A DNA stretch of 64,000 nt from an uncultured Candidatus Actinomarina sp. (GCA_902576605.1 CACGVI010000001.1:111522-175521); one strand, 5' to 3'; numbered from the stretch's first letter, positions 3,641-64,000 are shown. The notes: generated by a model from the sequence alone, not told the origin. Numbers and translations are program-made.

Positions 3641-3669
3641 ACATTTTTAAATCATTTGATATAATTTGA

Positions 3670-35701: not shown

Positions 35702-35808
35702 TAATGCACAATCTAACTAGATACTGAAATTATATGTAATTATTTAAGATTATTTATTAGTTTCATTTGGTTTCGTATTAACCGAAATTCAATGTAAGTT
35801 AGTAAAAT

Positions 35809-38016: not shown

Positions 38017-38426
38017 ACCCTGAAATTATTAATACCACAACAGAAGAATATAAAGAACTAATAGAATCCCTAAAAAAAGATGGATTTGAGATGATGGTAG
38101 ACCTCACAGTAGTTGATTGGTTTAGAAAAAAAGAACCTAGATTTGAAATAGTCGTTCAATTTTTATCAACTTCAAAAAATTCACGTAAGACAATAAAAGT
38201 ATTTGTTAATGATGAAGATTTAACAATACCTTCAATAACTGACATATATCCCAGTTCAAATTTTTATGAAAGAGAAGCCTATGACATGTTCGGTATCGTT
38301 TTTGCAGACCACCCAGACCTAACAAGAATCTTAATGCCTGACGATTGGGAAGGGCATCCACTAAGAAAAAATTATGGATCCGGAAGAATACCTGTCCAGT
38401 TTAAAAATGCTCCAAAGGTTGATTAA
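38013..38426 (+). CDS. nuoC: NADH-quinone oxidoreductase subunit C (short form)
   Basis: [13 protein letters not shown] motif; only 137 aa. Confidence 0.88.
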
Positions 38427-41700: not shown

Positions 41701-44009
41701 GTGAAAAAGTTAATTTAAATGTTAACGGTATAGAAATTGAGTCTGATCCTAACAAACTATTAATTGAAGCATGTGAAGATTCTGGAATTCACATTCCAAG
41801 ATTTTGTTGGCACAAACGCTTAGATCCGGTTGGTATGTGCAGAATGTGTCTAGTTGAAGTTGAAACACCAAGAGGAAAAATTTTAGTGCCATCTTGTACA
41901 ACTGAAGTCGGTGATGAAATGGTTGTTGATACCGAGTCTGATGTTGTGAAAAAAGCTCAAGAGGGAGTCTTAGAATTTCTATTGATAAATCACCCTCTTG
42001 ATTGTCCTATATGTGATAAAGCCGGAGAGTGTCCGCTTCAAGATCAAACAATGGCTTACGGTCCTGGAGAAAGTCGTTTTGTTGAGGAAAAAAGGCACTT
42101 TGAAAAACCGATAAATATATCTGAAATAATTTTGCTTGACCGAGAGAGATGTATTTTATGTGCAAGATGTACAAGGTTCTCAGATGAAATTTCAGGTGAT
42201 CCATTAATTGAGTTTATTCAAAGAGGAAATAAAACAGAAGTCAACACTTTTCCAAATGAACCTTTTAGGTCATACTTTTCAGGCAATACTGTTCAGATTT
42301 GTCCAGTTGGTGCTTTAACTTCTACATCCTACAGATTCAAAGCAAGGCCTTGGGACCTAAAATCTACAAGATCAACTTGCAACGGTTGTTCAATGGGTTG
42401 CTCAATAGAATTAAATTCATCGCAAAATAAAATGTTAAGAATTCTTGGTGTCGATAATGATGCTGTTAATCAAGGATGGATATGTGATAAAGGTCGATAC
42501 AATTTTGAATATTTGAATTCTGACTCAAGATTAAAAAACCCTCTTAAAAAGATGGATAATGAATTTGTAGAAATCGAAATTCAGGATGTATATTCTGAAC
42601 TTTCAGAAGTTATAAAAGACAAACAAACAAAAGTTAACTTTTTACTTGGTTCAAATTTAACTAACGAAGACTATGTTGCGTTTAGAGAATTTTCAGAAAT
42701 TATTTCTCAGTCTGAAAAAAGTTTTTATTTAAATGATGACTTGTTATTCAAAGGATTTTTTGGAGATAATATAGAATTAGCTAAGATTGACGATTTAAAC
42801 TCATCTGATGCAATAGTTGTATGGGCTGAAGATTTGAAAGAAAAAATTCCTGTTCTTTATTTAAGAATTCGACAAGCTGTAAAAAATGGTGTTAAGTTAG
42901 TTGTTTTTGGCCACACGAACGAGACCTTAAGTGACATCGCAGATGTATATTATGGTAAAGAAACAGTCTCAGAAAACTTTGAAATAGTAAAAGATGTTTC
43001 AAAACTTAAAGAAATTAAGGATTTAGTAATTGGTAAAAATATTACGGCAATTCTGGGTAAAGCTACGCCATATCAGTCTGATGAAAGTGTCACAAAGTTA
43101 TTTGAATTTTTAAATTTAAATACAAATTCAAAAGTATTAAATGCTTACTCAAAAGGCAATACTTATGGAGCTTTTAAAACTTTAGAAAATGTAAAAGGAC
43201 TAAATGATTTTGTTAATGATATATCAAAAGAAAGCACAGACCTATTATTTATTGTGGGTGCAGACCCTGTTGGCCGTTCAGTATATTCAAATCAAATAAA
43301 ATCAATAATTAAAGGGCTTGATATAGTTGTATCATTAGACAATTTCAATCATGAAACTTCAGAACAGGCTAACTTTGTGATACCAATTAGTTCAACATTG
43401 GGTGAAAAAGAAGGCACTTTTACGAATATTGAATTTAGAACATCTCGTATTGATAAACTTGTTCCATCTCCAGGACAAACTGTTAGTGATTGGGAATTTA
43501 TAACCAGTTTAATGAATTTTGCAGGGTTAACAGTTAAGACTAATAGCTTAGAAGACCTTAATACAAAAGCTTATGAAAATCTTGAGGATTCTGTAAGTCC
43601 AGTATTTGATAATTTAGATAAACCATCAAATTTAGATGGAATGGTAAATGTATCTAAACCAAAAATTTCCTCGTCAGTGAGAACTCTCATAAAGACTATG
43701 TTTTTTACTGGAGAAAAACTTTATGGAGATTCTGTTACCGTAAGGCACTCCGATAGCATTTCTTTATTAGGTTCGAAAAAATACATTGAAGTAAGTGAGA
43801 GTTTAGCTGAAAAATATAATCTAACTTCAGGTAAATGTACATTAATACAAGATGAATTAGAAGTTACTGTTAGCTATGAAGTTAGCAAAAGTTTACCTAA
43901 TGACTTAATTTATGTCCCAAAAAATAGAAGAGATCTAAATAAGTTTGATTTCTCAAGGGAAATTAACATTATACCTAGTCAGGTGAAAGAAGCGCTAAAT
44001 GTCAACTGA
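41697..44009 (+). CDS. nuoG: NADH-quinone oxidoreductase subunit G
   Basis: N-terminal 2Fe-2S (CWHKRL...CRMCLVEV), HPLDCPICDKAGECPLQD and CILCARCTRF. Confidence 0.93.
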   Translation: MSEKVNLNVNGIEIESDPNKLLIEACEDSGIHIPRFCWHKRLDPVGMCRMCLVEVETPRGKILVPSCTTEVGDEMVVDTESDVVKKAQEGVLEFLLINHPLDCPICDKAGECPLQDQTMAYGPGESRFVEEKRHFEKPINISEIILLDRERCILCARCTRFSDEISGDPLIEFIQRGNKTEVNTFPNEPFRSYFSGNTVQICPVGALTSTSYRFKARPWDLKSTRSTCNGCSMGCSIELNSSQNKMLRILGVDNDAVNQGWICDKGRYNFEYLNSDSRLKNPLKKMDNEFVEIEIQDVYSELSEVIKDKQTKVNFLLGSNLTNEDYVAFREFSEIISQSEKSFYLNDDLLFKGFFGDNIELAKIDDLNSSDAIVVWAEDLKEKIPVLYLRIRQAVKNGVKLVVFGHTNETLSDIADVYYGKETVSENFEIVKDVSKLKEIKDLVIGKNITAILGKATPYQSDESVTKLFEFLNLNTNSKVLNAYSKGNTYGAFKTLENVKGLNDFVNDISKESTDLLFIVGADPVGRSVYSNQIKSIIKGLDIVVSLDNFNHETSEQANFVIPISSTLGEKEGTFTNIEFRTSRIDKLVPSPGQTVSDWEFITSLMNFAGLTVKTNSLEDLNTKAYENLEDSVSPVFDNLDKPSNLDGMVNVSKPKISSSVRTLIKTMFFTGEKLYGDSVTVRHSDSISLLGSKKYIEVSESLAEKYNLTSGKCTLIQDELEVTVSYEVSKSLPNDLIYVPKNRRDLNKFDFSREINIIPSQVKEALNVN

Positions 44010-45096
44010 GTTAATAATTGCATTAATTAAATCAAATATTGTTTTAGCTGTTTTGCTTACTAACACAATACTGTTGATATGGCTTGAAAGGAAATTAGTT
44101 GCTGGAATGCAGTCCAGAGTAGGGCCTGACAGAGCTGGCCCCTTTGGAATATTACAAACTGTAGCGGATGCAATTAAATTATTATTAAAAGAACAAATAA
44201 TGCCTCTAAAAGCTGATAGAGCAATGTATCTATTGGCTCCAATTATTGCTTTAGTGCCGTCTTTTTTAATTTTTATGATCATTCCATTGGGTCCGGACTT
44301 AAACATTGAAATCGGTGGTAAAAATTATATGGTTGATTTTGTTGGTGCGGACTTGAATGTAGGTGTTCTTTATTTCTTAGCTTTGTCCTCTATTGCTGTA
44401 TATAGTGTAGTTTTAGCTGGGTGGTCTTCCGGCTCCAAATATCCACTTCTTGGGGGTGTTAGAGCTTCTGCACAAATGATTTCTTACGAGGCAGCTATGG
44501 GATTGTCTTTAGTACCAGTAATCCTATATTCTGGCTCGCTATCTCTTGTAGATATAGTTAGTAGTCAGTCGGGAAATTTATCAACAACTGTTCCGATTCT
44601 AAGCTCAATTGTTTCGTTTATTCCTAATTGGAATATTTTTCCGCAATTTATTGCATTTGGTATATTTTTTATAGCTGCTGTAGCTGAGGTTAACAGAGCT
44701 CCTTTTGACTTAGTAGAAGCTGAGCAAGAGTTGGTAGGAGGGTTTCATACAGAATACTCTGGATTTAGGTTCGCAATGTTTTTCTTAGCTGAGTATATAA
44801 ATATGTTCAACATGTGTGCGATTACTGCAACCTTTTTTCTAGGGGGGTGGCTTGGTCCTACTTTTGATGGGTTTTTGCCTCCAATCCTATCTGCAATTAT
44901 GCCAATTATTTGGTTAGGAGTTAAGACGTTTGCACTTTTATTTATATTTGTTTGGATAAGAGCTACATTACCAAGGCTCAGATATGATCAATTAATGGAG
45001 CTTGGATGGAAAAGACTTATACCAGCATCACTAGTATGGCTTATATTGTCCGCAATTGTTTTAGGATTAAGAGAGTTTGGTTTACCTTGGAGTTAA
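43999..45096 (+). CDS. nuoH: NADH-quinone oxidoreductase subunit H
   Basis: ND1 family: ERKLVAGMQSRVGPDRAGPFGILQ, and AEVNRAPFDLVEAEQELVGGFHTEYSG. Confidence 0.95.
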   Translation: MSTELIIALIKSNIVLAVLLTNTILLIWLERKLVAGMQSRVGPDRAGPFGILQTVADAIKLLLKEQIMPLKADRAMYLLAPIIALVPSFLIFMIIPLGPDLNIEIGGKNYMVDFVGADLNVGVLYFLALSSIAVYSVVLAGWSSGSKYPLLGGVRASAQMISYEAAMGLSLVPVILYSGSLSLVDIVSSQSGNLSTTVPILSSIVSFIPNWNIFPQFIAFGIFFIAAVAEVNRAPFDLVEAEQELVGGFHTEYSGFRFAMFFLAEYINMFNMCAITATFFLGGWLGPTFDGFLPPILSAIMPIIWLGVKTFALLFIFVWIRATLPRLRYDQLMELGWKRLIPASLVWLILSAIVLGLREFGLPWS

Positions 45097-45099
45097 GTT

Positions 45100-45714
45100 A
45101 TGAGTGACAGTTTTGGTTTAATAAAAGGATTGAAAGTAACTTTCAAAGAATTATTTAGAAAATCAGTCACCGATAAATATCCAAAGGAATTCAGAGAAAA
45201 GCCTCAAAGATTTCACGGTCGTCACGTTTTAAATAAGTATGAAGATGGTATGGAAAAATGTATAGGTTGTGAGCTGTGTGCAGGAGTTTGCCCAGCACAA
45301 TGCATTTATGTTCGAGGAGAGGATAATCCAGAAGAAAATCCTGTAAGCCCGGGAGAACGATATGGATTCATTTATGAAATAAATATGCTCAGGTGTATTT
45401 ACTGTGCCTTATGTGTGGAAGCTTGTCCTACTGAAGCTATCACCATGACTTCTCTTTTTGAGATGAGTGTTGCTAATAGGTCCGAAGCTATATTTGATAA
45501 AGATGTCTTAGTTGTAAAAGATGATGGAACTCCTAATACCCACGAGAATCAAACTAAATTAACTAATGTTGATGATTTAAATACCTCTGATGGATGGATG
45601 AGAGCAACCTCCCCTAATGGAAATCCAAATTTTCAAAATATAGTGAATTGGTCAGGCTCACTTGGAGTAGGAAAGAAACCCCCTGAAGAAGGACAGACAT
45701 TGGAGGAAGAGTAA
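45100..45714 (+). CDS. nuoI: NADH-quinone oxidoreductase subunit I
   Basis: Two 4Fe-4S motifs, CIGCELCAGVCP and CIYCALCVEACP, plus a C-terminal extension. Confidence 0.95.
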   Translation: MSDSFGLIKGLKVTFKELFRKSVTDKYPKEFREKPQRFHGRHVLNKYEDGMEKCIGCELCAGVCPAQCIYVRGEDNPEENPVSPGERYGFIYEINMLRCIYCALCVEACPTEAITMTSLFEMSVANRSEAIFDKDVLVVKDDGTPNTHENQTKLTNVDDLNTSDGWMRATSPNGNPNFQNIVNWSGSLGVGKKPPEEGQTLEEE

Positions 45715-45715
45715 A

Positions 45716-46243
45716 TTGGTTGAGGCGCTTTTATTCTTTGCTCCAGCAAGTCTCATTATCATAGGCGCACTCATTGTTATTTTTGCTAGAAATCCTGTTC
45801 ATAACGCTATGGGTTTAGTTTTGACATTAGTTTCGTTAGCAATAATTTATATCACTTTAAATGCGACTTTTGTTGCAATGGTTCAAATGTTAGTTTACGC
45901 CGGGGCTGTAATGACTTTGTTTCTTTTCGTAATAATGATGATTGGTGTTGATAAAAAAGAACAATCAACTGACTCAATTAAAGGTCAAACATTTTTAGTT
46001 ATTGGAGTTTTTTTAATTCTTATTTCATTATTAGCATACGTAGCAGTCAGTTCTGAATTTAAATGGGATCTCTGGTTTCCTCCAGTAGAATATGATTTAG
46101 AGGGAACACCGCAACTCATTGCGGGTGTTTTATTTACAGAATGGATATTTCCGTTTGAAATCATCTCCATATTGTTGATTGTTGCAACAGCAGCAGCTAT
46201 TGCATTAGCTTATGATACAAAGAAAAAGAATAGTAATGCTTGA
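45716..46243 (+). CDS. nuoJ: NADH-quinone oxidoreductase subunit J
   Basis: ND6-like, 5 TM helices, consistent position in the operon. TTG start. Confidence 0.88.
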
Positions 46244-46544
46244 AGTAACTACTGATTGGTATCTCACGCTTGCCGCAATGCTCTTCACTATCGGGTTCTT
46301 AGGTATGATGATTAGAAAAAATGCTCTAATTATGTTTATGTGTATTGAGCTTATGCTCAATGCTGTAAATTTAACATTTATTTCGGCATCTAATCATTTT
46401 GGAAAAATTGATGGTCAAGTTTTTGTTTTTTTTGTTTTAGTTGTTGCAGCTGCAGAAGTGGTGGTTGGATTAGCAATTATTGTTTCTATTTTTAGGAAGC
46501 AATCTTCAGCCTCGGTTGATGTGCTGAATGTGTCAAGAGGTTAA
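46236..46544 (+). CDS. nuoK: NADH-quinone oxidoreductase subunit K
   Basis: ND4L-like, 3 TM helices with conserved Glu ([21 protein letters not shown]). I prefer the ATG at 46236, which overlaps the nuoJ stop. Confidence 0.9.
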
Positions 46545-46545
46545 A

Positions 46546-48447
46546 TTGGAATTACTTTTTTTACTTCCAATTTTTCTTCCACTTCTTACATCATTTTTTT
46601 TATTTTTGAATAAAAAATTATTCAATGAATTAGTTACTAACTTTTTCACATTAAATGGAGCACTATTAGCATTTGCTATCGCTGCGTATTCATTTATTGC
46701 ACTAGCGCTTGATAAATTTAAACCAGTAAATGTTGAGCTGTTCCAGTGGATTTCTAATCCTGATATAAGTATCGGCTTTACCCTTGATGGGTTATCTGGA
46801 ATTATGCTGATATTAGTGACAGGATTATCTTTTGTAATTCAACTTTTTTCTACTTCGTACATGGCAAAAGACGAAAATCATTGTAATTATTTTGTATATT
46901 TTAACTTTTTTGTTTTTTCAATGTTGCTATTAGTCATGTCATCAAACTTCTTAGTAATGTTCTTTGGTTGGGAATTGGTTGGTTTAAGTTCATATCTTTT
47001 AATATCATTTTGGTCAAAAAAACCAGCAGCTGCAAAAGCAGGAAATAAAGCATTTGTCATAAATAGAATCGGGGATTTTGGATTTTTAATTGGATTAATG
47101 ATTATTTTGGATACATTTAATACATTTGATTTTTATAAAATTTTACAAAATACTAGTGGAGTAGCAGAGTCAACTATAACTTCTATATCACTCTTTTTAT
47201 TACTTGGTGCTTTTGGTAAATCTGCTCAGTTTCCTCTTTTTAGCTGGCTTCCAGATGCCATGGAGGGCCCAACCCCTGCAAGTGCTCTTATTCATGCAGC
47301 TACAATGGTTACGGCTGGGGTATTTATGCTTGTTCGAATATCTCCAATATTACAATACTCAAAAATAGCTAGCTTAGTCATAATAGTCTTTGGACTTATA
47401 ACAGCACTTCTTGCTGCTTTTTCAGCTATAAATCAATTTGATATTAAAAAAGTGCTAGCTTATTCAACAATTTCTCAGCTTGGGTTTATGTTTATTGCAA
47501 TTGGAGCAGGTGCATACGTCGCTGCAATTTTTCATTTGGTCACTCATGCATTTTTTAAAGCACTTTTGTTTCTAGGTGCTGGCGCTGTAATACATTCTAT
47601 GCACCATGAACAGGATATTAGAAAAATGGGTGGTCTTAGAAAAAAAATGCCAATCACTGCATCCATGATGGGAGTTGGAACTCTTGCAATATCAGGAATT
47701 CCACCTCTTGCAGGTTTTTGGTCAAAAGACGAAATACTTGCTTCTGTTTTTGTAAATGGAGGAGTCTATTATATTTTTTGGGCTTTAGCATTAGGTGCGG
47801 CTTTTCTTACAGCGTTCTATATGGGAAGACATTGGTTGCTAATTTTTGAAAAAGATAATGGTTTTGATCACTCAGATGTAGCTGAAGCACCAAAAGCAAT
47901 GACAAGACCTCTACTACTTTTAGGTATATTCTCGATATTTATCGGTTTTATAAATACCCCATTTTTTCATGGTTTAGAAAAAGTTTTACATGTAACTCTA
48001 GAGAATGTTGAAGTAACGCATCTACCAAAGGGTATTACATTAGTTGTGCTAGCAGTAATTTCTATTGGCGCAGGTTTTACAGGACTAATAGTTGCCTTTT
48101 TCTTATTTGGAATAGAACTTCATAAAAGAATTGACTTAAAAAAATTTAAACTTGAAAGTCCAATTAAACTGGTTAAAGATCTTTCTTCAAATATCTTTTA
48201 TTTAAATAAGCTTGGTAATCTTTTCTTTGTCTCCGGCATGAAGAACTTTACTCGTAAAGTAGCAGTTGTTGTGGATGGAATGTTGATTGATGGATCAGTT
48301 AATTTTGTATCAAATGCATTTAATAAAAGTTCTAAAATAACTTCTACAACTCAAACTGGTCTAGTAAGAAATTACATAGTTTACTTTGGGTTATTTCTAG
48401 TAATTCTTTTAGCATTGTTTATTGTTAATCCATTGGTGCCTAGATGA
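46546..48447 (+). CDS. nuoL: NADH-quinone oxidoreductase subunit L
   Basis: ND5 family: WLPDAMEGPTPASALIHAATMV. I prefer the TTG at 46546 (AAGAGG 5 nt upstream); the alternative is the ATG at 46528. Confidence 0.92.
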   Translation: MELLFLLPIFLPLLTSFFLFLNKKLFNELVTNFFTLNGALLAFAIAAYSFIALALDKFKPVNVELFQWISNPDISIGFTLDGLSGIMLILVTGLSFVIQLFSTSYMAKDENHCNYFVYFNFFVFSMLLLVMSSNFLVMFFGWELVGLSSYLLISFWSKKPAAAKAGNKAFVINRIGDFGFLIGLMIILDTFNTFDFYKILQNTSGVAESTITSISLFLLLGAFGKSAQFPLFSWLPDAMEGPTPASALIHAATMVTAGVFMLVRISPILQYSKIASLVIIVFGLITALLAAFSAINQFDIKKVLAYSTISQLGFMFIAIGAGAYVAAIFHLVTHAFFKALLFLGAGAVIHSMHHEQDIRKMGGLRKKMPITASMMGVGTLAISGIPPLAGFWSKDEILASVFVNGGVYYIFWALALGAAFLTAFYMGRHWLLIFEKDNGFDHSDVAEAPKAMTRPLLLLGIFSIFIGFINTPFFHGLEKVLHVTLENVEVTHLPKGITLVVLAVISIGAGFTGLIVAFFLFGIELHKRIDLKKFKLESPIKLVKDLSSNIFYLNKLGNLFFVSGMKNFTRKVAVVVDGMLIDGSVNFVSNAFNKSSKITSTTQTGLVRNYIVYFGLFLVILLALFIVNPLVPR

Positions 48448-49931
48448 TATCTATTTTGTTTTCTTTGCTACTAGTCCCACTTTTTAGTGCAATGCTAATA
48501 TTCATAATTCCTAATTCAAGAAAAGAAACATTTAGGCCAATTGGAATTGCATTTTCTTTAATAACATTAACTCAATGTGTTTACTTACTCTTTGGAGAGT
48601 ATGCAAAAACAGAGTTTAAAATTCTATCAACTTTTGAATGGATACAATCTTATGGAATAAATTTACATTTCGGTCTTTCTGGAATATCTACTTTATTGTT
48701 ATTGTTGAGCTCATTATTAGTTTTTGTTTCACTACTGTCTATTGGTAAAGATCACTCTGAAAGCAAAGGGTTTGTTGGCTCACTATTAATGCTGCATTTT
48801 GCAATAAATGGAGTATTTATTAGCGGTGATTTAATTTCATTATTTATATTTTTTGAAGCATTATTAATTCCTATGTATTTCTTAATGGGAATATGGGGAG
48901 GAGAAAATCGTCGATACGCAACTATAAAATTTATTCTTTACACTGTATTTGGTTCGGTATTTATTTTTATTGGAACAGTTTACACAGCAGTTATAAGCTA
49001 TGGAGTTAATGGAAAGTTTTCTGTTGATTTTGAAACACTTTCTTTATTGAGTTTGCTTGAATCACAGTCAAAAACTTTATTTTTATTATTTACATTTGGG
49101 TTTTTAATAAAAGTACCTATATTCCCTTTGCATACATGGTTACCTGATGCACACGTTGAGGCTCCAACTGCTGGAAGTATAATGTTGGCTGGAGTTCTTC
49201 TAAAAGTTGGTGCTTATGGTGTGTTTAGAGTCTCTATACCATTTTTTACGGAGGGTTTTTTAGCTTACAAAAACTGGATTGCAATACTATCCGTAATTGG
49301 AATTATTTATGGAGCCATTGTTGCAATTGCTCAAATTGATATCAAAAAATTAATTGCATATTCATCAGTAAGTCATATGGGATTTGTTATGTTAGGAATT
49401 TCAGCAGGTGGCTTCTTATCTATTGAAGGTGCTTTGATACAAATGATAAACCATGGTATAACTGCAGGAGCTTTGTTCATGCTTGTTGGATTTATTTATG
49501 AAAGAAGGCATACGAGGAAGATAAGTGATTTTGGTGGTATTAAAATTTCTATGCCAAGGTATGCTGCTATATTTTTATTTACCTCATTCGCATCAATTGG
49601 CCTTCCTGGATTAAATGGCTTTGTTGGAGAATTTATGATTTTGATGGGTAGTTATAATAGTTACAAAATTCTTACTTCTTTTGCTGCATTTGGAGTAGTG
49701 TTGGCAGCAATATATATGTTATGGGCTTATCAAAGAATGTTTACTGGACCTATCAAGTATGAAGAAAATAAAAATTTATCGGATTTGAATAGCCGTGAGA
49801 CCGCTTCAGTATTACCTCTTTTATTACTAATGCTATTCATAGGGGTATATCCAAGTTACATAGAAAGCTTTGTAATTAAAGAAGCGGTAATTTTGAGCGA
49901 TACGATTGCATTATTTATGGAGTTGAAATGA
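48444..49931 (+). CDS. nuoM: NADH-quinone oxidoreductase subunit M
   Basis: ND4 family: HTWLPDAHVEAPTAGSIMLAGVLLK. Confidence 0.94.
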   Translation: MISILFSLLLVPLFSAMLIFIIPNSRKETFRPIGIAFSLITLTQCVYLLFGEYAKTEFKILSTFEWIQSYGINLHFGLSGISTLLLLLSSLLVFVSLLSIGKDHSESKGFVGSLLMLHFAINGVFISGDLISLFIFFEALLIPMYFLMGIWGGENRRYATIKFILYTVFGSVFIFIGTVYTAVISYGVNGKFSVDFETLSLLSLLESQSKTLFLLFTFGFLIKVPIFPLHTWLPDAHVEAPTAGSIMLAGVLLKVGAYGVFRVSIPFFTEGFLAYKNWIAILSVIGIIYGAIVAIAQIDIKKLIAYSSVSHMGFVMLGISAGGFLSIEGALIQMINHGITAGALFMLVGFIYERRHTRKISDFGGIKISMPRYAAIFLFTSFASIGLPGLNGFVGEFMILMGSYNSYKILTSFAAFGVVLAAIYMLWAYQRMFTGPIKYEENKNLSDLNSRETASVLPLLLLMLFIGVYPSYIESFVIKEAVILSDTIALFMELK

Positions 49932-51397
49932 CACTAGTTGAAAATCTTATGATTAATTATGTTGTTATAAGTCCAACTCTTTCACTTTTATTTACAGTCA
50001 TTATTCTACTTTTTTGCACAATTACTATTTCAACACCAATGTACATTAAAAAGTGGGTTTCATTTTCTGGAGTTTTGTTAACTCTATTTATGGTTTTTTT
50101 AAAATTTGGGCTTTACTCAACCGATGGGATTTCAGCTTACTTTTCGAATATGATTCTTTCAGATCCATTTTCTCTTGTTGGCAATACTCTAATTGCATTT
50201 ATTTTACTATTTACTTTCAGTTCATTTTGGAAAACTTCCGAACTGATAGAAAGCAAAACTACAGAAGCATTAATTCTTATATTTATGTCAGCTTCTGGTT
50301 TTATGTTGATGGTTGATTCTGAAAATTTTATTATGTTATTTATTGGTCTTGAGATTGGTTCAATTAGTCTTTATGCATTGGCGGGATTAAACAGAGGTGA
50401 TCAACTTAGCAACGAGGCATCCTTAAAGTACTTTTTACTAGGTTCTCTAGCTTCGTGTATATTTATCTACGGTATAGCTCTTTTATATGTATCGCTCTCA
50501 ATAATTGGGCTTTATGAGATAAATATTGCAATAAACTATATTGGATTAAACAACGTCCCACTTACCAGTTTTATAGGAATCATTTTTATAATTGTAGGGT
50601 TATTATTTAAAGTAGCTGCTGCTCCTTTTCAAGCATGGGCACCAGATGTTTACCAAGGCTCTCCTACAGGATATGTAGGCTACATGGCAGCAGTAGCAAA
50701 AGCAGCATCTTTTATTGTGCTTGCAAGATTAATTACAGTGTCATTAAGGTTTATACTTGACCAATTTGATTTATTTTTTAGTGCAGTTGTTATATTATCT
50801 GTGCTTGGAGGTGCATTATTTGCAACCAATCAAAGTGATTTAAAACGATTGATTGCTTATAGTGGAGTAATTCAGTCAGGCTTTATACTTTCCGGAATAT
50901 CTTCAGGAGTTTTTGGTGTAAGTGCTTCGACTTTTTATCTTATAACCTACATAATTCAATTGGTAGGAATCTTTACTGTATTTTCAATAATAAGTGGACA
51001 GTTGAGCTCTGATTTTCAAATTTCTAATATTTCCGGTTTATTCAAAGAAAATAAATTTATAACTATTACATTTGCAATATTCATGCTTGGTCTTGCAGGG
51101 TTGCCATTAACTAGTGGATTTGTATCAAAGTTTATCCTTATTACCAATCTCTGGTCATATGAGAGGTATGTATTAGTTTCAGTTTTAATGCTGACTACAG
51201 TGGCGGGATTTTACTTTTACTTACGACCAATTTGGGTAGCTGCGGTTGAGAAAACAGAAAATGTAGTTGAAAGAATACTATTGAAAAAATCAGACAAGCT
51301 ATTACTAAGTGTATTGGCTGCTTTAACAATATATTTTGGATTACTTCCAAATACGCTTGTAAATATTACTCGTTGGATGGTTGAAAGTTATCTATAA
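49928..51397 (+). CDS. nuoN: NADH-quinone oxidoreductase subunit N
   Basis: ND2 family: AAAPFQAWAPDVYQGSPT. Confidence 0.94.
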   Translation: MTLVENLMINYVVISPTLSLLFTVIILLFCTITISTPMYIKKWVSFSGVLLTLFMVFLKFGLYSTDGISAYFSNMILSDPFSLVGNTLIAFILLFTFSSFWKTSELIESKTTEALILIFMSASGFMLMVDSENFIMLFIGLEIGSISLYALAGLNRGDQLSNEASLKYFLLGSLASCIFIYGIALLYVSLSIIGLYEINIAINYIGLNNVPLTSFIGIIFIIVGLLFKVAAAPFQAWAPDVYQGSPTGYVGYMAAVAKAASFIVLARLITVSLRFILDQFDLFFSAVVILSVLGGALFATNQSDLKRLIAYSGVIQSGFILSGISSGVFGVSASTFYLITYIIQLVGIFTVFSIISGQLSSDFQISNISGLFKENKFITITFAIFMLGLAGLPLTSGFVSKFILITNLWSYERYVLVSVLMLTTVAGFYFYLRPIWVAAVEKTENVVERILLKKSDKLLLSVLAALTIYFGLLPNTLVNITRWMVESYL

Positions 51398-56672: not shown

Positions 56673-57356
56673 TTAACTTACAAATATCCTTTTTGCTATA
56701 AATTGATCAAGACCAAAAAAATTATCTTTTGTCACACTTACGGTTATTGAGTATTTGTTAGTATTTGATATGTATATCTTATTTCCAGGCAAAATGTTAT
56801 TTTTATTAAGAAAAGAAATAACAGAACTATCTCTTTTTAGCTCTTCAGAAATTTTTATAATTGAATATTTTTTGTTTGTATCAACATCACTCAATCTATC
56901 CATAGGTCCTTCAAAATAATTTGAATATGGAATAGGGTTTCCAAACAATCCAGTTTTTGGGTTACCAAGAATTTTTAACATCGCATCTTCGGTAGTAGAA
57001 CTTAAAACATTTTCCCATTTTTTAGTTTCTGCGTAAACCTTTTCCCATGGTAAATTTAAAACTTCAGAAAGAAATCGTTCAATAATTCTGTGTCTTCTAG
57101 CTATCATTTTCGCAAGGTAGTCACCTTTTTTTGTAAGCTTTAACTCATCACCAAACTCAATTAAACCGCTGTTCTGCATTCTTCCTATAACTTGTGATAC
57201 ATTAGCTCTACTGACTCCTAACCAGTCAGCTACACGTGTTTGCTTAACGTCTATTCCAACTTCTGATAAATGAAATATTGCTTCAGCATGAGAGTAAAAA
57301 GATTTCGGTAACTTCTCAATTTCACTTTGCATGAAAATATTAGGATTATTGTTCAT
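56673..57356 (-). CDS. DtxR/IdeR/MntR-family metal-dependent transcriptional regulator
   Basis: HTH (VADWLGVSRANVSQVIGRMQNSGLI), dimerisation helix (RRHRIIERFL) and a C-terminal SH3/FeoA-like domain. Metal specificity is unknown. Confidence 0.82.
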   Translation of the reverse strand: MNNNPNIFMQSEIEKLPKSFYSHAEAIFHLSEVGIDVKQTRVADWLGVSRANVSQVIGRMQNSGLIEFGDELKLTKKGDYLAKMIARRHRIIERFLSEVLNLPWEKVYAETKKWENVLSSTTEDAMLKILGNPKTGLFGNPIPYSNYFEGPMDRLSDVDTNKKYSIIKISEELKRDSSVISFLNKNNILPGNKIYISNTNKYSITVSVTKDNFFGLDQFIAKRIFVS

Positions 57357-57399
57357 TTGTATATATGTTAACAGTTATTAACACTAAATGAAGAGAAGA

Positions 57400-57495
57400 T
57401 TAAAAGGCTGGGCAGCCAACAGCAAATGTTAATCCAAAAAATAATAACCAAATAATTGGTTCATATTTTCTCACAAGCTTAGGATCTTTTTGCAT
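57400..57495 (-). CDS. candidate 31-aa hydrophobic micro-protein (possibly leaderless)
   Basis: Encodes MQKDPKLVRKYEPIIWLLFFGLTFAVGCPAF. TAGAAT (57503-57508, minus strand) lies 7 nt before the ATG. Below the ORF-track cut-off. Confidence 0.3.
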   Translation of the reverse strand: MQKDPKLVRKYEPIIWLLFFGLTFAVGCPAF

Positions 57496-57533
57496 TACTA
57501 ATATTCTAGTGTTTTGTGTATAATAGTAATAAT

Positions 57534-57653
57534 ATGATGTGTCCTTATGCTTACGTTTTAGCCGGATTTATGTGGTTTGTTCGTAATGGTGGTAAATTTG
57601 TGTTCAAATCATTAAATTTTAAAAAGCTTTCAAAATCAGGCACTTTTAACTAA
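57534..57653 (+). CDS. candidate 39-aa hydrophobic/basic micro-protein (short or no leader)
   Basis: Encodes MMCPYAYVLAGFMWFVRNGGKFVFKSLNFKKLSKSGTFN. An extended -10 TGTGTATAAT ends 9 nt before the ATG. Its 3' end overlaps the convergent hemH stop by 18 nt. Confidence 0.3.
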   Translation: MMCPYAYVLAGFMWFVRNGGKFVFKSLNFKKLSKSGTFN

Positions 57654-58652
57654 ATTTTCTAAAAGAGTAATAGTATCATCTGAATCATTTAGACACGGTA
57701 TATAAGTCATATTCTTACCTCCAGCATCAAAAAATGTTTTTCTTCCTCGAATATCTATTTCTTCTAAAGTTTCGAGACAATCTGATATAAATGATGGGCA
57801 TAATACAGCTATATTATTCTTACCTTCTTCTGGTAATTCAGAGAGCCTTCTGTCTGTGAAGGGAGTAAGCCATCCAGGACCTATCCTAGATTGGTATGCA
57901 ACTTCCCATTGATCATCATTTAAGCCGAGTTTTTTTGCTGTCAAATCTGAAGCAATCCTAGTATGAGACCTGTAACAGTCTTTTGAGCCTTCACCTTCAA
58001 CCTCACAACAGTTACCAGTTGAAAAACAATGCTCACCTGTTTTATCTGTTTTTTTTGCCTGTCTTTTAGGAATTCCGTGATAGCTAAATATAATTTTGTC
58101 AAATGATGCTTTTTTGATATAAGGTTTTATGGAATTACTTACAGCATCTATGTATATCTCATTGTCAAAAAAAGGTTTTGTAAAAGTTAATTTAAAATCT
58201 TCAGAGACTTTGTTAGCTACAATTCTGGTTTCCATTTCAGTAGTTATTGTTGTTGCCATGGCGTTATGAGGATAAAGAGATATAACTATGAGATTAAATA
58301 TACCTTTCTTTTTGAAATTAAGTAATGCATTTTCAATACTTGGATCTTCGTATCTCATTGCATATTCAACATGCCAACCAGTTTTTGAAGATAATTTTTT
58401 TGCAATACTGTCTGTAGATAAAATCAATGGAGATCCTTCTGGAGTCCAAATTTGTTCATAGGCTTCTAAAGTGTTTTTTGGCCTGAAGGGGAGTATGAAA
58501 ATTCGTAGTATTAATTGCTGAAGAATTTTAGGTAGATCTAAAACGTAATCATCAGACAAAAATACTTTTAAGTAATCTCTTACTGATTTTTTTGTGAGTT
58601 CCTTGGGACTCCCAAGGTTTATTAGAAGCACTCCTGGTATGTTTGAAGTCAT
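57636..58652 (-). CDS. hemH: ferrochelatase (HemH/CpfC)
   Basis: LLINLGSP, FSYHGIP, and SFISDCLETLEEI. It has an internal 4-Cys insertion. Confidence 0.9.
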   Translation of the reverse strand: MTSNIPGVLLINLGSPKELTKKSVRDYLKVFLSDDYVLDLPKILQQLILRIFILPFRPKNTLEAYEQIWTPEGSPLILSTDSIAKKLSSKTGWHVEYAMRYEDPSIENALLNFKKKGIFNLIVISLYPHNAMATTITTEMETRIVANKVSEDFKLTFTKPFFDNEIYIDAVSNSIKPYIKKASFDKIIFSYHGIPKRQAKKTDKTGEHCFSTGNCCEVEGEGSKDCYRSHTRIASDLTAKKLGLNDDQWEVAYQSRIGPGWLTPFTDRRLSELPEEGKNNIAVLCPSFISDCLETLEEIDIRGRKTFFDAGGKNMTYIPCLNDSDDTITLLENLVKSA

Positions 58653-58771
58653 AATTTAAATTTTACGATAAATTAAAAAAAAGCATAAATTAAAAAATTA
58701 AAAATAAATTACCATTAACTTAAAATGTTAAGTACTATTAACAAAAGTTAAGCAAATAAACGAAGGTTGAA

Positions 58772-59890
58772 ATGAATAAAAAAAGTACAGTTATTTTAAT
58801 TGCTTTCATGATGGTTTTAACCGCTTGTTCACCTACAGCAGGAGAGCAAGGACCAGCAGGAGAGCAAGGACCAGCAGGAGAGCAGGGACCAGCTGGAACA
58901 GTATCACAGGAAGCTATTGATGCAGCAGTAGAAGCTGCACTAGCGGAGAGGGAAGCTGAAGTCGGTGGAACTCTTGTCATTTATAGTGGTAGAAAAGAAA
59001 GTCTTGTTGCAGATATTATTGCAGAATTTGCTGCAACTTCAGGAATTGAAGTTGAAGTAAGATATGCAAAGAGTGCTGCGCTTGCAGGAACACTTGAACT
59101 TGAAGGTGCAATCAGTCCCGCTGATGTATTCTTCTCACAAGATCCAGTTAGCCTTGGGGTTGTCGCAAAAGCAGGACTTTTCGACAGACTTCCTGCTGAT
59201 GTTCTAGGAAATGTACCATCTTGGGCAGTAGACAGCAACGGTTATTGGGTAGGTACTTCCGGAAGGTCACGATCTCTTGTAGTAGACACACGAGATGTTA
59301 TGGATTCTGAACTACCAGGTGATATATATGGGTTAGCAGATGAAAAATTTCGTAACAGGTTAGGACTTGCTCCAACCAACTCATCATTTATAGCAATGGT
59401 TGCTTGTATGATCGAGTCAGATGGTGAAGAAAAAGTCTTAGAATGGCTAACAGCAATTAATGGCCTTGGATATGGTGAATATCCAAAAAACTCACCTCAA
59501 GTAGCAGCTGCTGCAGCAGGTGAGCTTGATATTGGAATGATCAATCATTACTACACACTAAGAGTGTTAGCAGAAGATGCTGGTGCTCCTATCAAAAATG
59601 TTTACTTAGACGGTGGATGTGGTGCAATGGTTATGCCTGCAGGAGTTGGTATTTTGTCCTCAAGCCAAAATAAACCAGCAGCAATGGCATTCATTGAATT
59701 CTTACACTCACAGGGTGCTCAAGAAACATTTACAAATACAGTATACGAGTTCCCTCTTGTTGCAGGTATTCAGCCGAATGCTTTGCTACCAGATATTAAC
59801 AGTTTGAATTCACCTTCAAATCTAAACTGGTCAGCTTTAGCGCTATGGCAAGAAAAAGCAGTGGAGTTGATTGCTCAGGCAGGATTTTAG
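58772..59890 (+). CDS. fbpA: Fe(III) ABC transporter substrate-binding lipoprotein (FbpA/AfuA family)
   Basis: Lipobox LTAC. SPADVFFSQD and WVGTSGRSRSLVVD closely parallel the FbpA sequence as I recall it (SPADVFYSEQ, WVALSGRSRVVVYD). Confidence 0.88.
   Translation: MNKKSTVILIAFMMVLTACSPTAGEQGPAGEQGPAGEQGPAGTVSQEAIDAAVEAALAEREAEVGGTLVIYSGRKESLVADIIAEFAATSGIEVEVRYAKSAALAGTLELEGAISPADVFFSQDPVSLGVVAKAGLFDRLPADVLGNVPSWAVDSNGYWVGTSGRSRSLVVDTRDVMDSELPGDIYGLADEKFRNRLGLAPTNSSFIAMVACMIESDGEEKVLEWLTAINGLGYGEYPKNSPQVAAAAAGELDIGMINHYYTLRVLAEDAGAPIKNVYLDGGCGAMVMPAGVGILSSSQNKPAAMAFIEFLHSQGAQETFTNTVYEFPLVAGIQPNALLPDINSLNSPSNLNWSALALWQEKAVELIAQAGF
58838..58891 (+). repeat. 3 x 18-nt tandem repeat encoding (AGEQGP)3 linker
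   Basis: gcaggagagcaaggacca appears three times (the third copy has 1 mismatch), immediately after the lipobox Cys. Confidence 0.95.
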
Positions 59891-59916
59891 TCCATCCGTC
59901 AGTATCAACATAAGCC

Positions 59917-59958
59917 AAAAAATTCTGGTCAGAGAAATCTGGCCAGAATTTTTTCTTT
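59917..59958 (+). terminator. rho-independent terminator/attenuator between fbpA and fbpB
   Basis: AAAAAAUUCUGGUCAG-AGAAAU-CUGGCCAGAAUUUUUU (one G-U pair) followed by a U-rich tract. Confidence 0.8.
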
Positions 59959-59991
59959 TATTATTTAAATATTTTATTTAATCTTAATTAA

Positions 59992-61548
59992 GTGAATATA
60001 CCAAAGCCGCTTTTAGTCGGAAACACATTTATCTTATTAATATTTTTGATGCCAATATTTTATATGTTTTGGAGGTTTGCAAATTTTTCAAAAAACCTAA
60101 CCAACTTTCTTTCTTCATGGGATGTAGCAACATTATTATTAAATACGCTTTTTTTATTTTTTGCTGTAATATTTTCCAGCCTTTTTCTAGGTCTACTTAT
60201 TTCAATTCTTACTGTTAGATATGAGTTTCCGGGTTCAAAAATTCTATTTTCCCTCACAATACTCCCTTTAGTTATACCGTCATATATTGGTGCTTTAACT
60301 TATGTCTCTGCATTTTCTCCTAAAGGTTTGTTTGTTGATCTGTTTTCTAAATATGGTATTAGTGAAATAATAGGTATAGAAGGGTTTGTTGGCAGTTGGA
60401 TAGTCTTAACACTTTTCACATATCCCTATGTTCAATTGATTTGTAGCAGTGCTCTAAGAAATTTAGATTCAACTGTAGAAGATGCTGCGAGGTCTTTAGG
60501 AGTTAAGAAAATTAAAATGTATACAAAAGTTGTCATTCCTAGGTTAAAAAAGCCAATAATATATTCTTCTTTACTAGTTGGCCTTTATGTTATATCTGAC
60601 TTTGGAGCAGTTTCTCTGATGAAGTATGGAACAATGACAAAAGCAATTTATTCATATTATGTAATAAATATAAATGGTGATCCAGTAATTTTTTACTCAA
60701 CAATTTTAATTTTATTAGCATTAGTAATAAGCTTTGCTCAACGTGGAAGTGAATTAAGTAGGTCCGCTAAAGTTTCTGGTACTCCTAGAGAAATTACAAA
60801 AATCAAACTTTCCCAAAAAAATAAAGTTCTAGTATTAACATTTTTTGGTATTGTTATTTTCTTTAGTTTGCTTCTTCCAGTTAGCGTCTTGTCCTATTGG
60901 TTAATCAGAGGATTAGCTAATGGAAATTCAGTAAGCGGTACATTTTCTGGTGTGGTAGGTTCATTAACCGCTGCTTCAGTGACTTCACTTTTTGCAATGG
61001 TTATAGCTACTCCTATTGTTGTAATGATTTCACAATATAGAACTAAATTTGGTGATATTTTTGAAAAAGTCACCCTTACCTTATATGGTCTTCCACATAT
61101 AGCCGTTGGTATATCAATGCTATTTATTACAATAAAAATTTTTCCTGCAATTTATCAAACTTTTACAACACTTATAATCTCATACTTAATTGTTTTTTTA
61201 CCACAAGCTGTTGGAGGGGGCCAGGCTTCTATGGAACAAGTAAAGTTATCATATATTGAAGCAAGTGCGGGCCTTGGTTTATCAAAATTAGATACCTTCT
61301 TTAAGGTAACTTTTCCATTAATTTACAGGGGTCTAGTTGCTGGTGCAGCGCTTGTATTTCTTTCAACAATGAAAGAGTTGCCACAAACTCTTCTACTTAG
61401 GCCTACGGGATTCAGCACTATGGCTGTCGATATATGGTCTTATGCATCAGAAGCTTTGTTCACTCAGGCAGCATTTTCTGCATTTATTTTGCTAGCAATT
61501 AGTGCATTGCCAACATATATACTTAGTACAAGGAATTTAAATAACTAA
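59992..61548 (+). CDS. fbpB: Fe(III) ABC transporter permease (double-domain FbpB type)
   Basis: 518 aa with 12 TM helices and two MalFG-type halves (DAARSLG and EASAGLG EAA loops). GTG start. Confidence 0.85.
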   Translation: MNIPKPLLVGNTFILLIFLMPIFYMFWRFANFSKNLTNFLSSWDVATLLLNTLFLFFAVIFSSLFLGLLISILTVRYEFPGSKILFSLTILPLVIPSYIGALTYVSAFSPKGLFVDLFSKYGISEIIGIEGFVGSWIVLTLFTYPYVQLICSSALRNLDSTVEDAARSLGVKKIKMYTKVVIPRLKKPIIYSSLLVGLYVISDFGAVSLMKYGTMTKAIYSYYVININGDPVIFYSTILILLALVISFAQRGSELSRSAKVSGTPREITKIKLSQKNKVLVLTFFGIVIFFSLLLPVSVLSYWLIRGLANGNSVSGTFSGVVGSLTAASVTSLFAMVIATPIVVMISQYRTKFGDIFEKVTLTLYGLPHIAVGISMLFITIKIFPAIYQTFTTLIISYLIVFLPQAVGGGQASMEQVKLSYIEASAGLGLSKLDTFFKVTFPLIYRGLVAGAALVFLSTMKELPQTLLLRPTGFSTMAVDIWSYASEALFTQAAFSAFILLAISALPTYILSTRNLNN

Positions 61549-62570
61549 TGGCATTCGAAAATTTAATTATAAGAGCGAGATCAGTTGTTAAATCATATGG
61601 ATCGGAGAAAGTTTTATCTGATTTTAATTTAGACATTTGGAACGGTTCTATAGTAGGAATTTTAGGAATTTCGGGTTCAGGAAAAACAACTGCATTGAGA
61701 TTACTTGCTGGATTTGATAAACCAGATTCAGGAATTATTGAGATGCGCGATAGAGTAATTTCAAGTCAAGACACTTTCCTGCCACCAGAAGAAAGAAATG
61801 TTGGAATGGTATTTCAAGATTATGCTTTATTCCCACATTTAAATGTTGAAAAAAATATATCATTCGGGCTCTCACGAGATGAAATAAAAATTGGAAGATT
61901 AGAAGAAGTTCTTTCAATGTGTAATTTAGAAACTTATAGAAATAAGTTTCCTCAGGAATTGTCTGGGGGACAGCAACAAAGAGTCTCTCTTGCTAGAGCA
62001 TTAGCTCCAAAACCAGAAGTCGTTCTTTTAGATGAACCTTTTACAAGCTTAGATGCACATATGGCTAGAGATCTAAGGGAAGAGGTAATTTCATTATTAA
62101 GACAAACTGAAACTACTGCATTAATTGTCACCCATGACCAAGAAGAAGCTTTATCAGTTTGTGATGTAGTAAGTGTTTTAGAAAATGGAAGTGTAATCCA
62201 AAGTGCTACTCCACAAGAAATTTATCTGAATCCAGTTAGTCAAACTGTTGCAAATTCAGTTGGAGACCCAAACATACTTAAAGGCTTCTCAATAGATGGA
62301 AGGGTGGAAACATCTTTGGGTACTTTTGTTACGGCATATAATGGTGCATTGGATGTTTCAATTCGACCAGAATGTATTGAGTTACTTCTTGATTCTGAAG
62401 GCAGTTATGTTGTGAAAGAATGTACGTTTTATGGTCATGACCAGGTTGTTTCATTCCAAAATAGCAAAGGTGAAGTATTTAGAGCAAGGTCACTTCCAAA
62501 TACTATTTATGAAGTTGGTGATAAAGTAAATATCAATATATCAGAAGTAACTACTTTTCCTTCAAATTGA
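61548..62570 (+). CDS. fbpC: Fe(III)/polyamine-type ABC transporter ATP-binding protein
   Basis: GISGSGKTT, LSGGQQQRVSLARAL, VLLDEPFTSLD, and a C-terminal TOBE-like domain. Confidence 0.88.
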   Translation: MAFENLIIRARSVVKSYGSEKVLSDFNLDIWNGSIVGILGISGSGKTTALRLLAGFDKPDSGIIEMRDRVISSQDTFLPPEERNVGMVFQDYALFPHLNVEKNISFGLSRDEIKIGRLEEVLSMCNLETYRNKFPQELSGGQQQRVSLARALAPKPEVVLLDEPFTSLDAHMARDLREEVISLLRQTETTALIVTHDQEEALSVCDVVSVLENGSVIQSATPQEIYLNPVSQTVANSVGDPNILKGFSIDGRVETSLGTFVTAYNGALDVSIRPECIELLLDSEGSYVVKECTFYGHDQVVSFQNSKGEVFRARSLPNTIYEVGDKVNINISEVTTFPSN

Positions 62571-62756
62571 TGATTTGATATAAGCAACTCTACCCGCAAG
62601 CGACTGCAATTCTATTTCAATCTCAGATAATTTAGTATTTGCTCTTGATAACTCGTTTTCAGATATATATTCGCGAGAATTTGCTAACGATTTTACTAAT
62701 GTATCTAAATCAAACATCAGTGATTCAATTTCTGAAAAAATTAATTCTTTATCCAC
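62562..62756 (-). CDS. hypothetical 64-aa acidic coiled-coil protein (possibly leaderless)
   Basis: Heptad-like sequence with no low-complexity junk. GTG start lies 6 nt after TAGAAT (62763-62768, minus strand). It is divergent from the heliorhodopsin gene. Confidence 0.4.
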   Translation of the reverse strand: MDKELIFSEIESLMFDLDTLVKSLANSREYISENELSRANTKLSEIEIELQSLAGRVAYIKSSI

Positions 62757-62815
62757 TATTTAATTCTAATTTGAAAACTAGAATTAGCTTAATATTAATT
62801 GAGGGGGAAATAATA

Positions 62816-63619
62816 GTGGAAACTAAAATTCAAAAGCTTAAACGTTTTAACATAATAATGGGAACCGTTCACTTAATTCAAGGCGGACTATTATTTTGGC
62901 TTGGTACTGTTGTTAATTCAGATTTTGTGGTGCCAATTACTTTAACACAACTTGTAGGTGTAGGTTCTCCAGAAGATCCTTCAAGCTTTGCATTGATTCC
63001 TCAACTTGAAATTTGGACAGAGGTTACAAACTTTGGGCCAGCAGTTGCTACATTTTTGCTTGCCTCAGCAGTCGCGCATTACTTGATTTCTGGTCCTTTT
63101 TACGGCAAGTACAAAGACGACTTATCAAAAGGAATTAACAAAGTTAGATGGATTGAATACTCAATAAGTGCATCTGTGATGATTGTATTAATTGCTCTTC
63201 TTGTTGGAATATATGATATTTGGGCTTTAGCAGGGATATTTTTTATGAACGCAGCAATGTGTTGGTTTGGATGGATGATGGAAGTGCATAATCAATATAC
63301 AGATAAAGTTGATTGGACTAGTTACATAATGGGTTGTTTAGTTGGCGTTACTCCTTGGATTTTTATATTTATTAATCTTATAGGAGATGGTGTTGCAACT
63401 GACACTAATCCGCAAGGAGTTCCTCAATTCGTTGTATGGATTTTTGTAAGTATATTTTTATTCTTTAATACTTTTTCAATAAATATGATATTGCAATATA
63501 AGCAAGTAGGTAAATGGAAAGATTATCTGTATGGTGAAAGAGCTTACATTTGGTTAAGCTTGCTTGCAAAAACTTGTCTTGCCTGGCAAGTATTTTTTGG
63601 AACATACCAACCGAATTAA
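62816..63619 (+). CDS. heliorhodopsin
   Basis: Matches the heliorhodopsin 48C12 sequence as I remember it: RWIEYSISASVMIVLIA (counterion Glu), GERAYIWLSLLAKTCLAWQVFFGT (Schiff-base Lys), and the two conserved His (TVHLIQ, AVAHYLI). GTG start 9 nt after GAGGGGG. Confidence 0.9.
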   Translation: METKIQKLKRFNIIMGTVHLIQGGLLFWLGTVVNSDFVVPITLTQLVGVGSPEDPSSFALIPQLEIWTEVTNFGPAVATFLLASAVAHYLISGPFYGKYKDDLSKGINKVRWIEYSISASVMIVLIALLVGIYDIWALAGIFFMNAAMCWFGWMMEVHNQYTDKVDWTSYIMGCLVGVTPWIFIFINLIGDGVATDTNPQGVPQFVVWIFVSIFLFFNTFSINMILQYKQVGKWKDYLYGERAYIWLSLLAKTCLAWQVFFGTYQPN

Positions 63620-63623
63620 ATAC

Positions 63624-63695
63624 TTATTTAATTTTTTTCCCAAAAAATATAAGCAGAATAATTATTAAAAATAAACCAATATAAGAAAGTGCCAT
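63624..63695 (-). CDS. candidate 23-aa TM micro-protein coupled to the DUF4349 gene
   Basis: TAATG stop/start overlap. Encodes MALSYIGLFLIIILLIFFGKKIK. Its stop lies 5 nt from the heliorhodopsin stop. Confidence 0.25.
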   Translation of the reverse strand: MALSYIGLFLIIILLIFFGKKIK

Positions 63696-64000
63696 TAGTC
63701 TTTAGATCTAAATTTTCTAATTCCTAATACTATCAGCAACAATGGAACTGCAATTATTCCAAAAGATACTACAAAACCAATAATTGATTCAATCCAATTT
63801 AATGCTCTTTGTACATAATAATTCCATGAAAATAGTGATACTCCAGAACCCTCTCTAATATCTAACGTCAAAGAAGAGTACGATACTGAATTTTCATAAT
63901 ATTTTTTTTGTCCTTCCAAAACTTGAATGTCTTGATTTATGTAACGAAGTTGAGACTGTACTTGAAGCTTATCTGATGTCGATACAGCTTCTTCTTTAAT
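63695..64000 (-). CDS. DUF4349-like membrane-anchored coiled-coil protein, C-terminal part (5' end beyond window)
   Basis: The frame is open to the window edge (…KEEAVSTSDKLQVQSQLRYINQDIQVLEGQKKYYENSVSYSSLTLDIRE…). It has a C-terminal TM helix and basic tail, as in DUF4349. Confidence 0.6.
   Translation of the reverse strand: MKEEAVSTSDKLQVQSQLRYINQDIQVLEGQKKYYENSVSYSSLTLDIREGSGVSLFSWNYYVQRALNWIESIIGFVVSFGIIAVPLLLIVLGIRKFRSKD

Follow-up and report, generated by a model that had tools for sequence, protein, structure and literature searches.

A heliorhodopsin gene beside iron-import genes of an uncultured Candidatus Actinomarina: probable inherited synteny next to a candidate operator-defined iron regulon

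A heliorhodopsin (HeR) gene arrangement of the kind analysed here has already been reported for the order Actinomarinales (Lopez-Perez et al. 2020, mSystems, PMC7771536), and in the OcHeR-OmrDE system (Cho et al. 2024, PMC11109279) a HeR gene is likewise found beside ATP-binding cassette (ABC) transporter genes of the same strand. We have studied a 64,000-nucleotide stretch of DNA from an uncultured Candidatus Actinomarina sp. (GCA_902576605.1, CACGVI010000001.1:111522-175521; hereafter the window, GC content ~33%), in which the HeR gene follows fbpABC, the genes of a predicted Fe(III) importer, while the ferrochelatase gene hemH and the gene of a DtxR-family regulator lie 4-6 kb upstream of HeR, as an earlier note on this DNA had it (Table 1). 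Both the organism group and the layout of the window match the locus in the term-matched passages of Lopez-Perez et al. Thus, the location of HeR beside an iron importer is known; what is new is a small gene, orf64, between fbpC and HeR, the co-occurrence of an operator with the regulator gene, the limits of the clade that has this arrangement and the variability of hemH and the regulator gene. Neither orf64, nor the operator, nor the degenerate metal site of the regulator appears in those passages. The OcHeR-OmrDE system differs from the window in that helR and the transporter genes are predicted to be under one promoter there, whereas an opposite-strand gene intervenes here, and in that the partner there is a heterodimeric multidrug exporter, whereas a binding-protein-dependent Fe(III) importer is encoded here. 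The earlier note had proposed that light sensing is tied to iron/heme handling, with the caveat that the adjacency may be incidental. The proposal found no support in tests of neighbourhood, operator and operon structure; the caveat is favoured by synteny that is limited to one clade and by the lack of a shared operator or operon. We consider it probable that HeR is a light sensor that depends on retinal and is transcribed independently, and that its place beside fbpABC is inherited synteny and not a functional unit.

The 267-aa product is a bona fide heliorhodopsin. It matches the Pfam family PF18761 over its full length with 293.6 bits (curated cut-off 26.7, E=1.3e-87) and the NCBIfam family NF038020 with 309.5 bits (cut-off 100). 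The best match among solved structures is TaHeR (6is6), which aligns with the window protein end to end with E=4e-66; the alignment with 48C12 (6su3), E=1e-55, is also full-length. In helix 3, the counterion Glu is found in RWIEYS, opposite RWFEYS of TaHeR, and in the last helix the Schiff-base Lys is found in SLLAKT, opposite SLVAKS. The two His are located in TVHLIQ and AVAHYLI, opposite VIHLIQ and ATAHILI of TaHeR (H23 and H82 there). As the earlier note had said, the Lys, the Glu and both His are in place, and the corresponding residues K252, E114, H19 and H88 are invariant in an alignment of 22 diverse HeRs. TaHeR, 48C12 and the window protein have in common the Schiff-base Lys, a single Glu counterion and both His. 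The window protein differs from the other two in sequence (identity ~50-55%), and its loops at residues 45-60 and 190-200 are longer. By homology, an inverted membrane topology, retinal binding and a slow, non-pumping photocycle can be expected. The gene is under strong constraint, with a ratio of nonsynonymous to synonymous substitution rates (dN/dS) of 0.03-0.06 against relatives, and its product is 96% identical to the HeR of two Candidatus Actinomarina single amplified genomes. A look-up of the exact protein sequence, with V or M as residue 1, retrieved no recorded gene.

The start codon is GTG, where relatives have ATG, and a Shine-Dalgarno-like sequence is present 8 nt upstream of it; a G-rich block occupies the position of the ribosome-binding site in 56 distinct relatives. 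The gene thus has a ribosome-binding site of its own, which the earlier note had also recognised. An extension of the frame to a TTG codon at 62639 (62639-62815, plus strand), which would yield a 326-aa protein, was rejected as an artefact, since the added part runs across orf64, which lies on the opposite strand, and shows no conservation as coding sequence.

The earlier note had placed HeR about 250 nt after the importer genes on the same strand. The strand and the distance (245 nt from the end of fbpC at 62570 to the HeR start) stand, but the gap is not empty: it is filled by orf64, a gene of the minus strand. That orf64 is a real 64-aa gene can be seen from conservation with a clear 3-nt period in its frame (alignment with six relatives), from its length of 64-65 aa in relatives and from dN/dS of 0.06-0.16 against the closest species, indicative of purifying selection. 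It has 287 homologues; the few with a named source are mostly from Ca. Actinomarina, and none carries a Pfam domain. AlphaFold2 predicts, with pLDDT 95.8, that orf64 folds as a soluble hairpin of two helices (residues 3-32 and 36-63). No match with E<0.1 came from a Foldseek search with this model; what it retrieved were helical hairpins of generic or designed type, each with E of at least 0.5.

In terms of transcription units, orf64 is convergent with fbpC (tail to tail, with a 9-nt overlap) and divergent from HeR, with a spacer of 59 nt in the window and 40-60 nt across loci. Downstream of HeR, a DUF4349 gene is convergent with it. With opposite-strand genes on both sides, HeR looks monocistronic by layout. 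The region upstream of HeR is short and AT-rich, and no palindrome or regulatory motif in the orf64-HeR spacer is conserved across relatives. A perfect 8-bp inverted repeat in front of HeR (TAATTCTA-N10-TAGAATTA, 62761-62786) was considered as an operator and rejected, because it is not kept in relatives. A scan with the sigma-70 consensus gave 21 matches vs 33.9 in shuffled sequence and is uninformative in this AT-rich genome. No Rfam match was found within the region 56673-63619.

The iron genes of the window, on the other hand, carry a common operator, while HeR does not. Footprinting across relatives revealed the palindrome GTTAA-N6-TTAAC, which matches the 64-kb window exactly at two places only, before the regulator gene and before fbpA. 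The copy before the regulator gene is conserved in all seven regulator-bearing sequences first examined (the window and six genome loci). In three loci in which hemH is inverted (L006, L163 and L165), a third copy is found just before hemH (at 4851 in L006). Presence or absence of the regulator gene could be settled for 44 loci; the operator precedes fbpA in 34/34 of those with the gene and in 0/10 of those without it (Fisher p=4e-10, the loci being phylogenetically related and not independent events). The regulator and its operator have thus been lost jointly in whole lineages, which constitutes a natural co-loss experiment. No copy of GTTAA-N6-TTAAC is present near HeR or orf64. Since the operator marks the iron genes and is missing at HeR, the iron genes form an operator-defined regulon, and HeR stands outside it. 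With the operator missing and an opposite-strand gene separating HeR from fbpC, there is no sign that HeR is co-regulated or co-transcribed with the iron genes.

The protein that would act at this operator resembles IdeR, its best match in PDB (1fx7), in its three-domain architecture (a winged helix-turn-helix domain, a dimerisation/metal domain and an FeoA/SH3-like domain) and in being associated with a palindrome that precedes both its own gene and genes of iron uptake. Comparison of six orthologues with IdeR shows that three of the four ligands of the primary metal site are replaced (M10 by S, K or T; C102 by K or S; H106 by N) and E105 alone is kept; two of the three replaced positions vary between orthologues. 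At the ancillary site H79, E83 and E172 are kept, while H98 is replaced by Y and Q175 by K, both replacements being conserved. The protein is a DtxR-family regulator with a degenerate primary metal site. Its score against the NCBIfam DtxR equivalog, 118 bits, is below the cut-off of 290, and GTTAA-N6-TTAAC is found where the canonical 19-bp DtxR/IdeR box (TTAGGTTAGSCTAACCTAA) would be expected; the latter has no match in the window with up to 3 mismatches. We infer that the DtxR-like protein represses its own gene (autoregulation), hemH and fbpABC through the GTTAA-N6-TTAAC operator.

Conservation of the neighbourhood was followed in HeR loci from GTDB species genomes (80 loci), from metagenomes (80 loci) and, in several cases, from exact-protein look-ups. 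The Actinomarina-type clade comprises 82 of them, with HeRs 84-98% identical; the counts below are among informative loci, which are related, so that the counts are not independent. In this clade, fbpC lies directly upstream of orf64-HeR in 70/70 loci, fbpA is present in 53/53 and orf64 stands head-to-head with HeR in 75/76; orf64 was found nowhere else. The remaining neighbours are less constant. The regulator gene is present in 34 of 44 loci and missing in 10, and hemH is present in 21 of 44 (on the minus strand in 18, inverted to the plus strand with an operator of its own in 3, absent in 23); both are thus often missing from the locus, unlike in the layout found in passages of Lopez-Perez et al. 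Directly downstream of HeR, DUF4349 is found in 48 of 63 loci, and a gene of a PF01663 phosphodiesterase takes this place in the other 15. The single clade locus without intact orf64 and fbpC, L132 (1-434), is on a 2.6-kb metagenome contig in which only 13 codons of orf64 are left, joined to an open reading frame (ORF) read by eye as PhzF-like; this is possibly a real rearrangement, an assembly chimera being equally likely.

The synteny extends far beyond HeR and fbpABC. A block of ~25 kb between two nuo operons is collinear in every clade locus examined, with indel differences only. Its order is nuoN, ABC, ABC2, PKcyc2, o181, o149, [ADH], TK, DUF454, [regulator], orf31, orf45, [hemH], fbpABC, orf64, HeR, [DUF4349], phosphodiesterase, nuoA, the bracketed genes being variable. 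In the window, nuoA-N, including nuoEFG, occupies 37154-51397; in relatives, a nuo operon without EFG begins 2-3 kb past HeR. Because the whole block is collinear, the junction of HeR with fbp is no better kept than, for example, that of TK with DUF454.

Outside the clade the association ends. In a sister lineage (L082-L084 and L088-L096; contigs with 34-35% GC), HeR is 82-84% identical to that of the window and is found in three contexts: after CSD and small ORFs and before TldD/PmbA; after cytochrome b561, nucleoside deoxyribosyltransferase and a 138-aa gene; and between two unknown genes and TldD. Neither fbp nor orf64 is present near HeR in these loci, and HeR has therefore moved within the order; in passages of Lopez-Perez et al. 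it is said to be "always" at the location described there. We considered the possibility that the sister-lineage HeRs are paralogues inside Actinomarina genomes. This is disfavoured, as the TldD of the sister lineage is only ~70% identical to that of Actinomarina (the next group of matches is at 44% or less) and the Actinomarina TldD locus is without HeR; the sequences favour a separate lineage. At 75 more distant HeR loci, homologues of fbpA, fbpB, hemH or DtxR within 10 kb were found in none, and generic ABC ATPases (24-36% identical) were found near HeR in ~14. Thus, when conservation of the neighbours is traced, as proposed earlier, fbpABC and orf64 are kept across many Actinomarina species, while DUF4349, hemH and the regulator gene are inconstant and conservation ends at the edge of the clade.

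Genes of retinal biosynthesis were also sought in the window. No Blh, CrtB, CrtI or CrtY domains were detected when ORFs judged to be real genes and at least 110 aa long were surveyed with Pfam, six ORFs of the nuo operon (45100-46544 and 48444-51397) being left out of the survey. It turned up only a polyprenyl synthase gene (16921-17904) and a geranylgeranyl-reductase-like gene (35809-37074). This agrees with the earlier observation that no retinal-biosynthesis gene is visible nearby.

Taken together, these data make the following course of events probable. In the ancestor of the Actinomarina clade, HeR would have come to lie next to fbpABC in a single event, and it would have travelled with the stable block ever since. 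A promoter of its own, within the 40-60 nt upstream of the ribosome-binding site, would drive its transcription, and the protein would act like characterised heliorhodopsins, in which a light-induced conformational change is passed to a partner protein. Its chromophore would be scavenged, because the order Actinomarinales is described in passages of Lopez-Perez et al. (PMC7771536) as having no retinal biosynthesis genes.

Several points weigh against inherited synteny as the explanation. The fbpABC-orf64-HeR core is never split (70/70), while ADH, the regulator gene, hemH and DUF4349 on its flanks vary, and synonymous sites are saturated between species, with synonymous divergence (dS) of 0.7 to above 3. 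According to a 2026 preprint, gene order is generally shuffled between Actinomarina species; if this holds, the stability of the block would be above the genome background. Since a pattern scan for intrinsic terminators gave none between fbpC and HeR, read-through transcription into HeR is possible. Furthermore, a HeR can act on an ABC transporter, since OcHeR was shown experimentally to bind and stimulate one (PMC11109279). By analogy with this precedent, light-activated HeR could bind the FbpBC permease/ATPase and adjust the uptake of Fe(III), which would limit photo-oxidative damage at high iron load. The invariant fbpC-(orf64)-HeR order, kept despite indels on both sides, is consistent with such a role, as are context analyses that link HeRs to oxidative-stress as well as two-component genes (PMC8612252). 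We nevertheless regard it as quite unlikely. HeR lies outside the fbp operon, with an opposite-strand gene in between, and has no operator in common with the iron genes; the sister lineage and the 75 other HeR loci are without an fbp neighbour; and the junction is kept no better than the rest of the block. FbpABC is a type I importer with separate subunits, while the precedent is a fused heterodimeric exporter, and the ten recurrent classes of HeR neighbours include no iron transporters (PMC11109279).

A functional pair of HeR and the divergent orf64, with fbpABC as a bystander, is likewise unlikely. Here, orf64 would be a clade-specific partner or transducer of HeR, and the two genes would share the divergent promoter region of 40-60 nt. 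The purifying selection on orf64, its confinement to the clade, where it occurs only head-to-head with HeR, and its confidently predicted soluble hairpin fold would fit this role; characterised HeRs signal via cytoplasmic protein partners (PMC11109279). But orf64 has just as close a tie to fbpC, whose 3' end it overlaps, and position does not tell the two links apart; in the sister lineage a very similar HeR occurs without orf64; the spacer is without a conserved regulatory motif; and no structural or sequence homologue points to a signalling role. That FbpBC, orf64 and HeR together make up a light-gated iron-import module of the Actinomarina clade, with orf64 possibly serving as an adaptor, appears very unlikely to us; if true, it would provide a defined physiological role for a heliorhodopsin in a highly abundant ocean photoheterotroph. 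Inherited synteny of an independently transcribed HeR is the reading that we retain.

The coordinates of the features discussed are collected in Table 1. Profile and PDB matches agree with the assignments of the Fe(III) ABC importer, the ferrochelatase and the DtxR-family regulator that the earlier note had made.

Table 1. Features of the heliorhodopsin locus and the adjoining iron/heme genes (positions in the window)
Feature	Position	Strand	Evidence or location
DtxR/IdeR-family regulator	56673-57356	-	PF01325, PF02742, PF04023; IdeR 1fx7 E=1e-28
Operator GTTAACAGTTATTAAC (GTTAA-N6-TTAAC)	57367-57382		directly 5' of regulator gene; exact match
orf31, conserved small hydrophobic peptide ending in VGCPxF	57400-57495	-	tblastn
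orf45, conserved small ORF (MMCPYAY..GFMWFVRNGGK), function unassigned	57516-57653	+	tblastn
hemH, ferrochelatase	57636-58652	-	PF00762 E=6.8e-86; TIGR00109 216 bits
Extra half-site TTAAC near fbpA operator	58715-58719
Operator GTTAAGTACTATTAAC (GTTAA-N6-TTAAC)	58727-58742		30 nt before fbpA, 75 nt before divergent hemH; exact match
fbpA, lipoprotein Fe(III)-binding protein	58772-59890	+	PDB 7w3w E=1.7e-63; Neisseria FbpA 1d9y E=1.7e-41
17-bp perfect-looking stem-loop and T-run between fbpA and fbpB	59917-59954	+	terminator scan, sequence
fbpB, fused double permease, 518 aa	59992-61548	+	two BPD_transp_1 stretches
fbpC, ABC ATPase with C-terminal TOBE domain	61548-62570	+	ABC_tran PF00005, TOBE_2 PF08402
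orf64, 64 aa, function unassigned	62562-62756	-	3-nt periodicity, dN/dS, homologues, AlphaFold2
Shine-Dalgarno-like GAGGGGG	62801-62807	+	8 nt 5' of HeR GTG start; sequence
HeR, 267 aa, GTG start	62816-63619	+	PF18761, NF038020, TaHeR 6is6 alignment
DUF4349 gene, C-terminal part, runs off window	63695-64000	-	PF14257 E=8e-4; convergent with HeR

By sequence, fbpABC encodes an FbpABC-type Fe(III) ABC importer in which the binding protein, the permease and the ATPase are separate subunits. In FbpA, the Tyr-Tyr pair of iron ligands is aligned, with NHYY opposite NNYY of a solved ferric-binding protein. The N-terminal part of the gene (58772-58900) encodes a lipobox, LTAC, and behind it, as a linker, three GEQGPA repeats in tandem; a minus-strand ORF that mirrors the start of fbpA (58738-58980) is an artefact of this repeat. 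The stem-loop between fbpA and fbpB is likely an attenuator that sets the ratio of binding protein to permease in favour of the binding protein.

Between the regulator gene and hemH, orf31 and orf45 are arranged head to head, 20 nt apart, and both are kept where the regulator gene is deleted. Matches of orf31 (52-97% identical) were retrieved by tblastn from 6/6 Actinomarina-type genome loci, and those of orf45 (56-82% identical) from 5/6, with none found in L005. No family in Pfam or NCBIfam matched orf31, orf45 or orf64.

Elsewhere in the window, two SAM-I/IV riboswitches are present on the plus strand, at 2432-2520 and 3668-3760. The former precedes an S-adenosylmethionine synthetase gene (2552-3640), and the latter precedes genes of a Cys/Met-metabolism PLP enzyme and an alpha/beta hydrolase (3786-6129). 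A cytochrome P450 gene at the window start (18-575, plus strand) is represented by its C-terminal 185 aa only. Just before the complete 14-gene nuoA-N operon, genes of a Rex-like redox repressor (Put_DNA-bind_N and CoA_binding, minus strand) and of the geranylgeranyl-reductase-like flavoprotein are located (35057-37074).

Heliorhodopsins still await a settled function, and Actinomarina are among the most abundant marine photoheterotrophs; a real link between light and iron in them would be important. On the diel expression of HeR in prokaryotes, a literature search gave nothing of relevance to Actinomarina, and a paper on Luna-1 mentions HeR and iron each, with no link between them. The adjacency of HeR and fbpABC is published and clade-restricted, probably reflects inherited synteny and shows no sign of a regulatory connection; as evidence that light and iron are linked it is weak, and it should not be taken as support for such a link. 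As by-products, the analysis yields a map of transcription units with a stand-alone HeR and a small divergent gene, an iron regulon defined by its operator and a regulator that lacks the canonical primary metal site and has been lost together with its operator in whole lineages.

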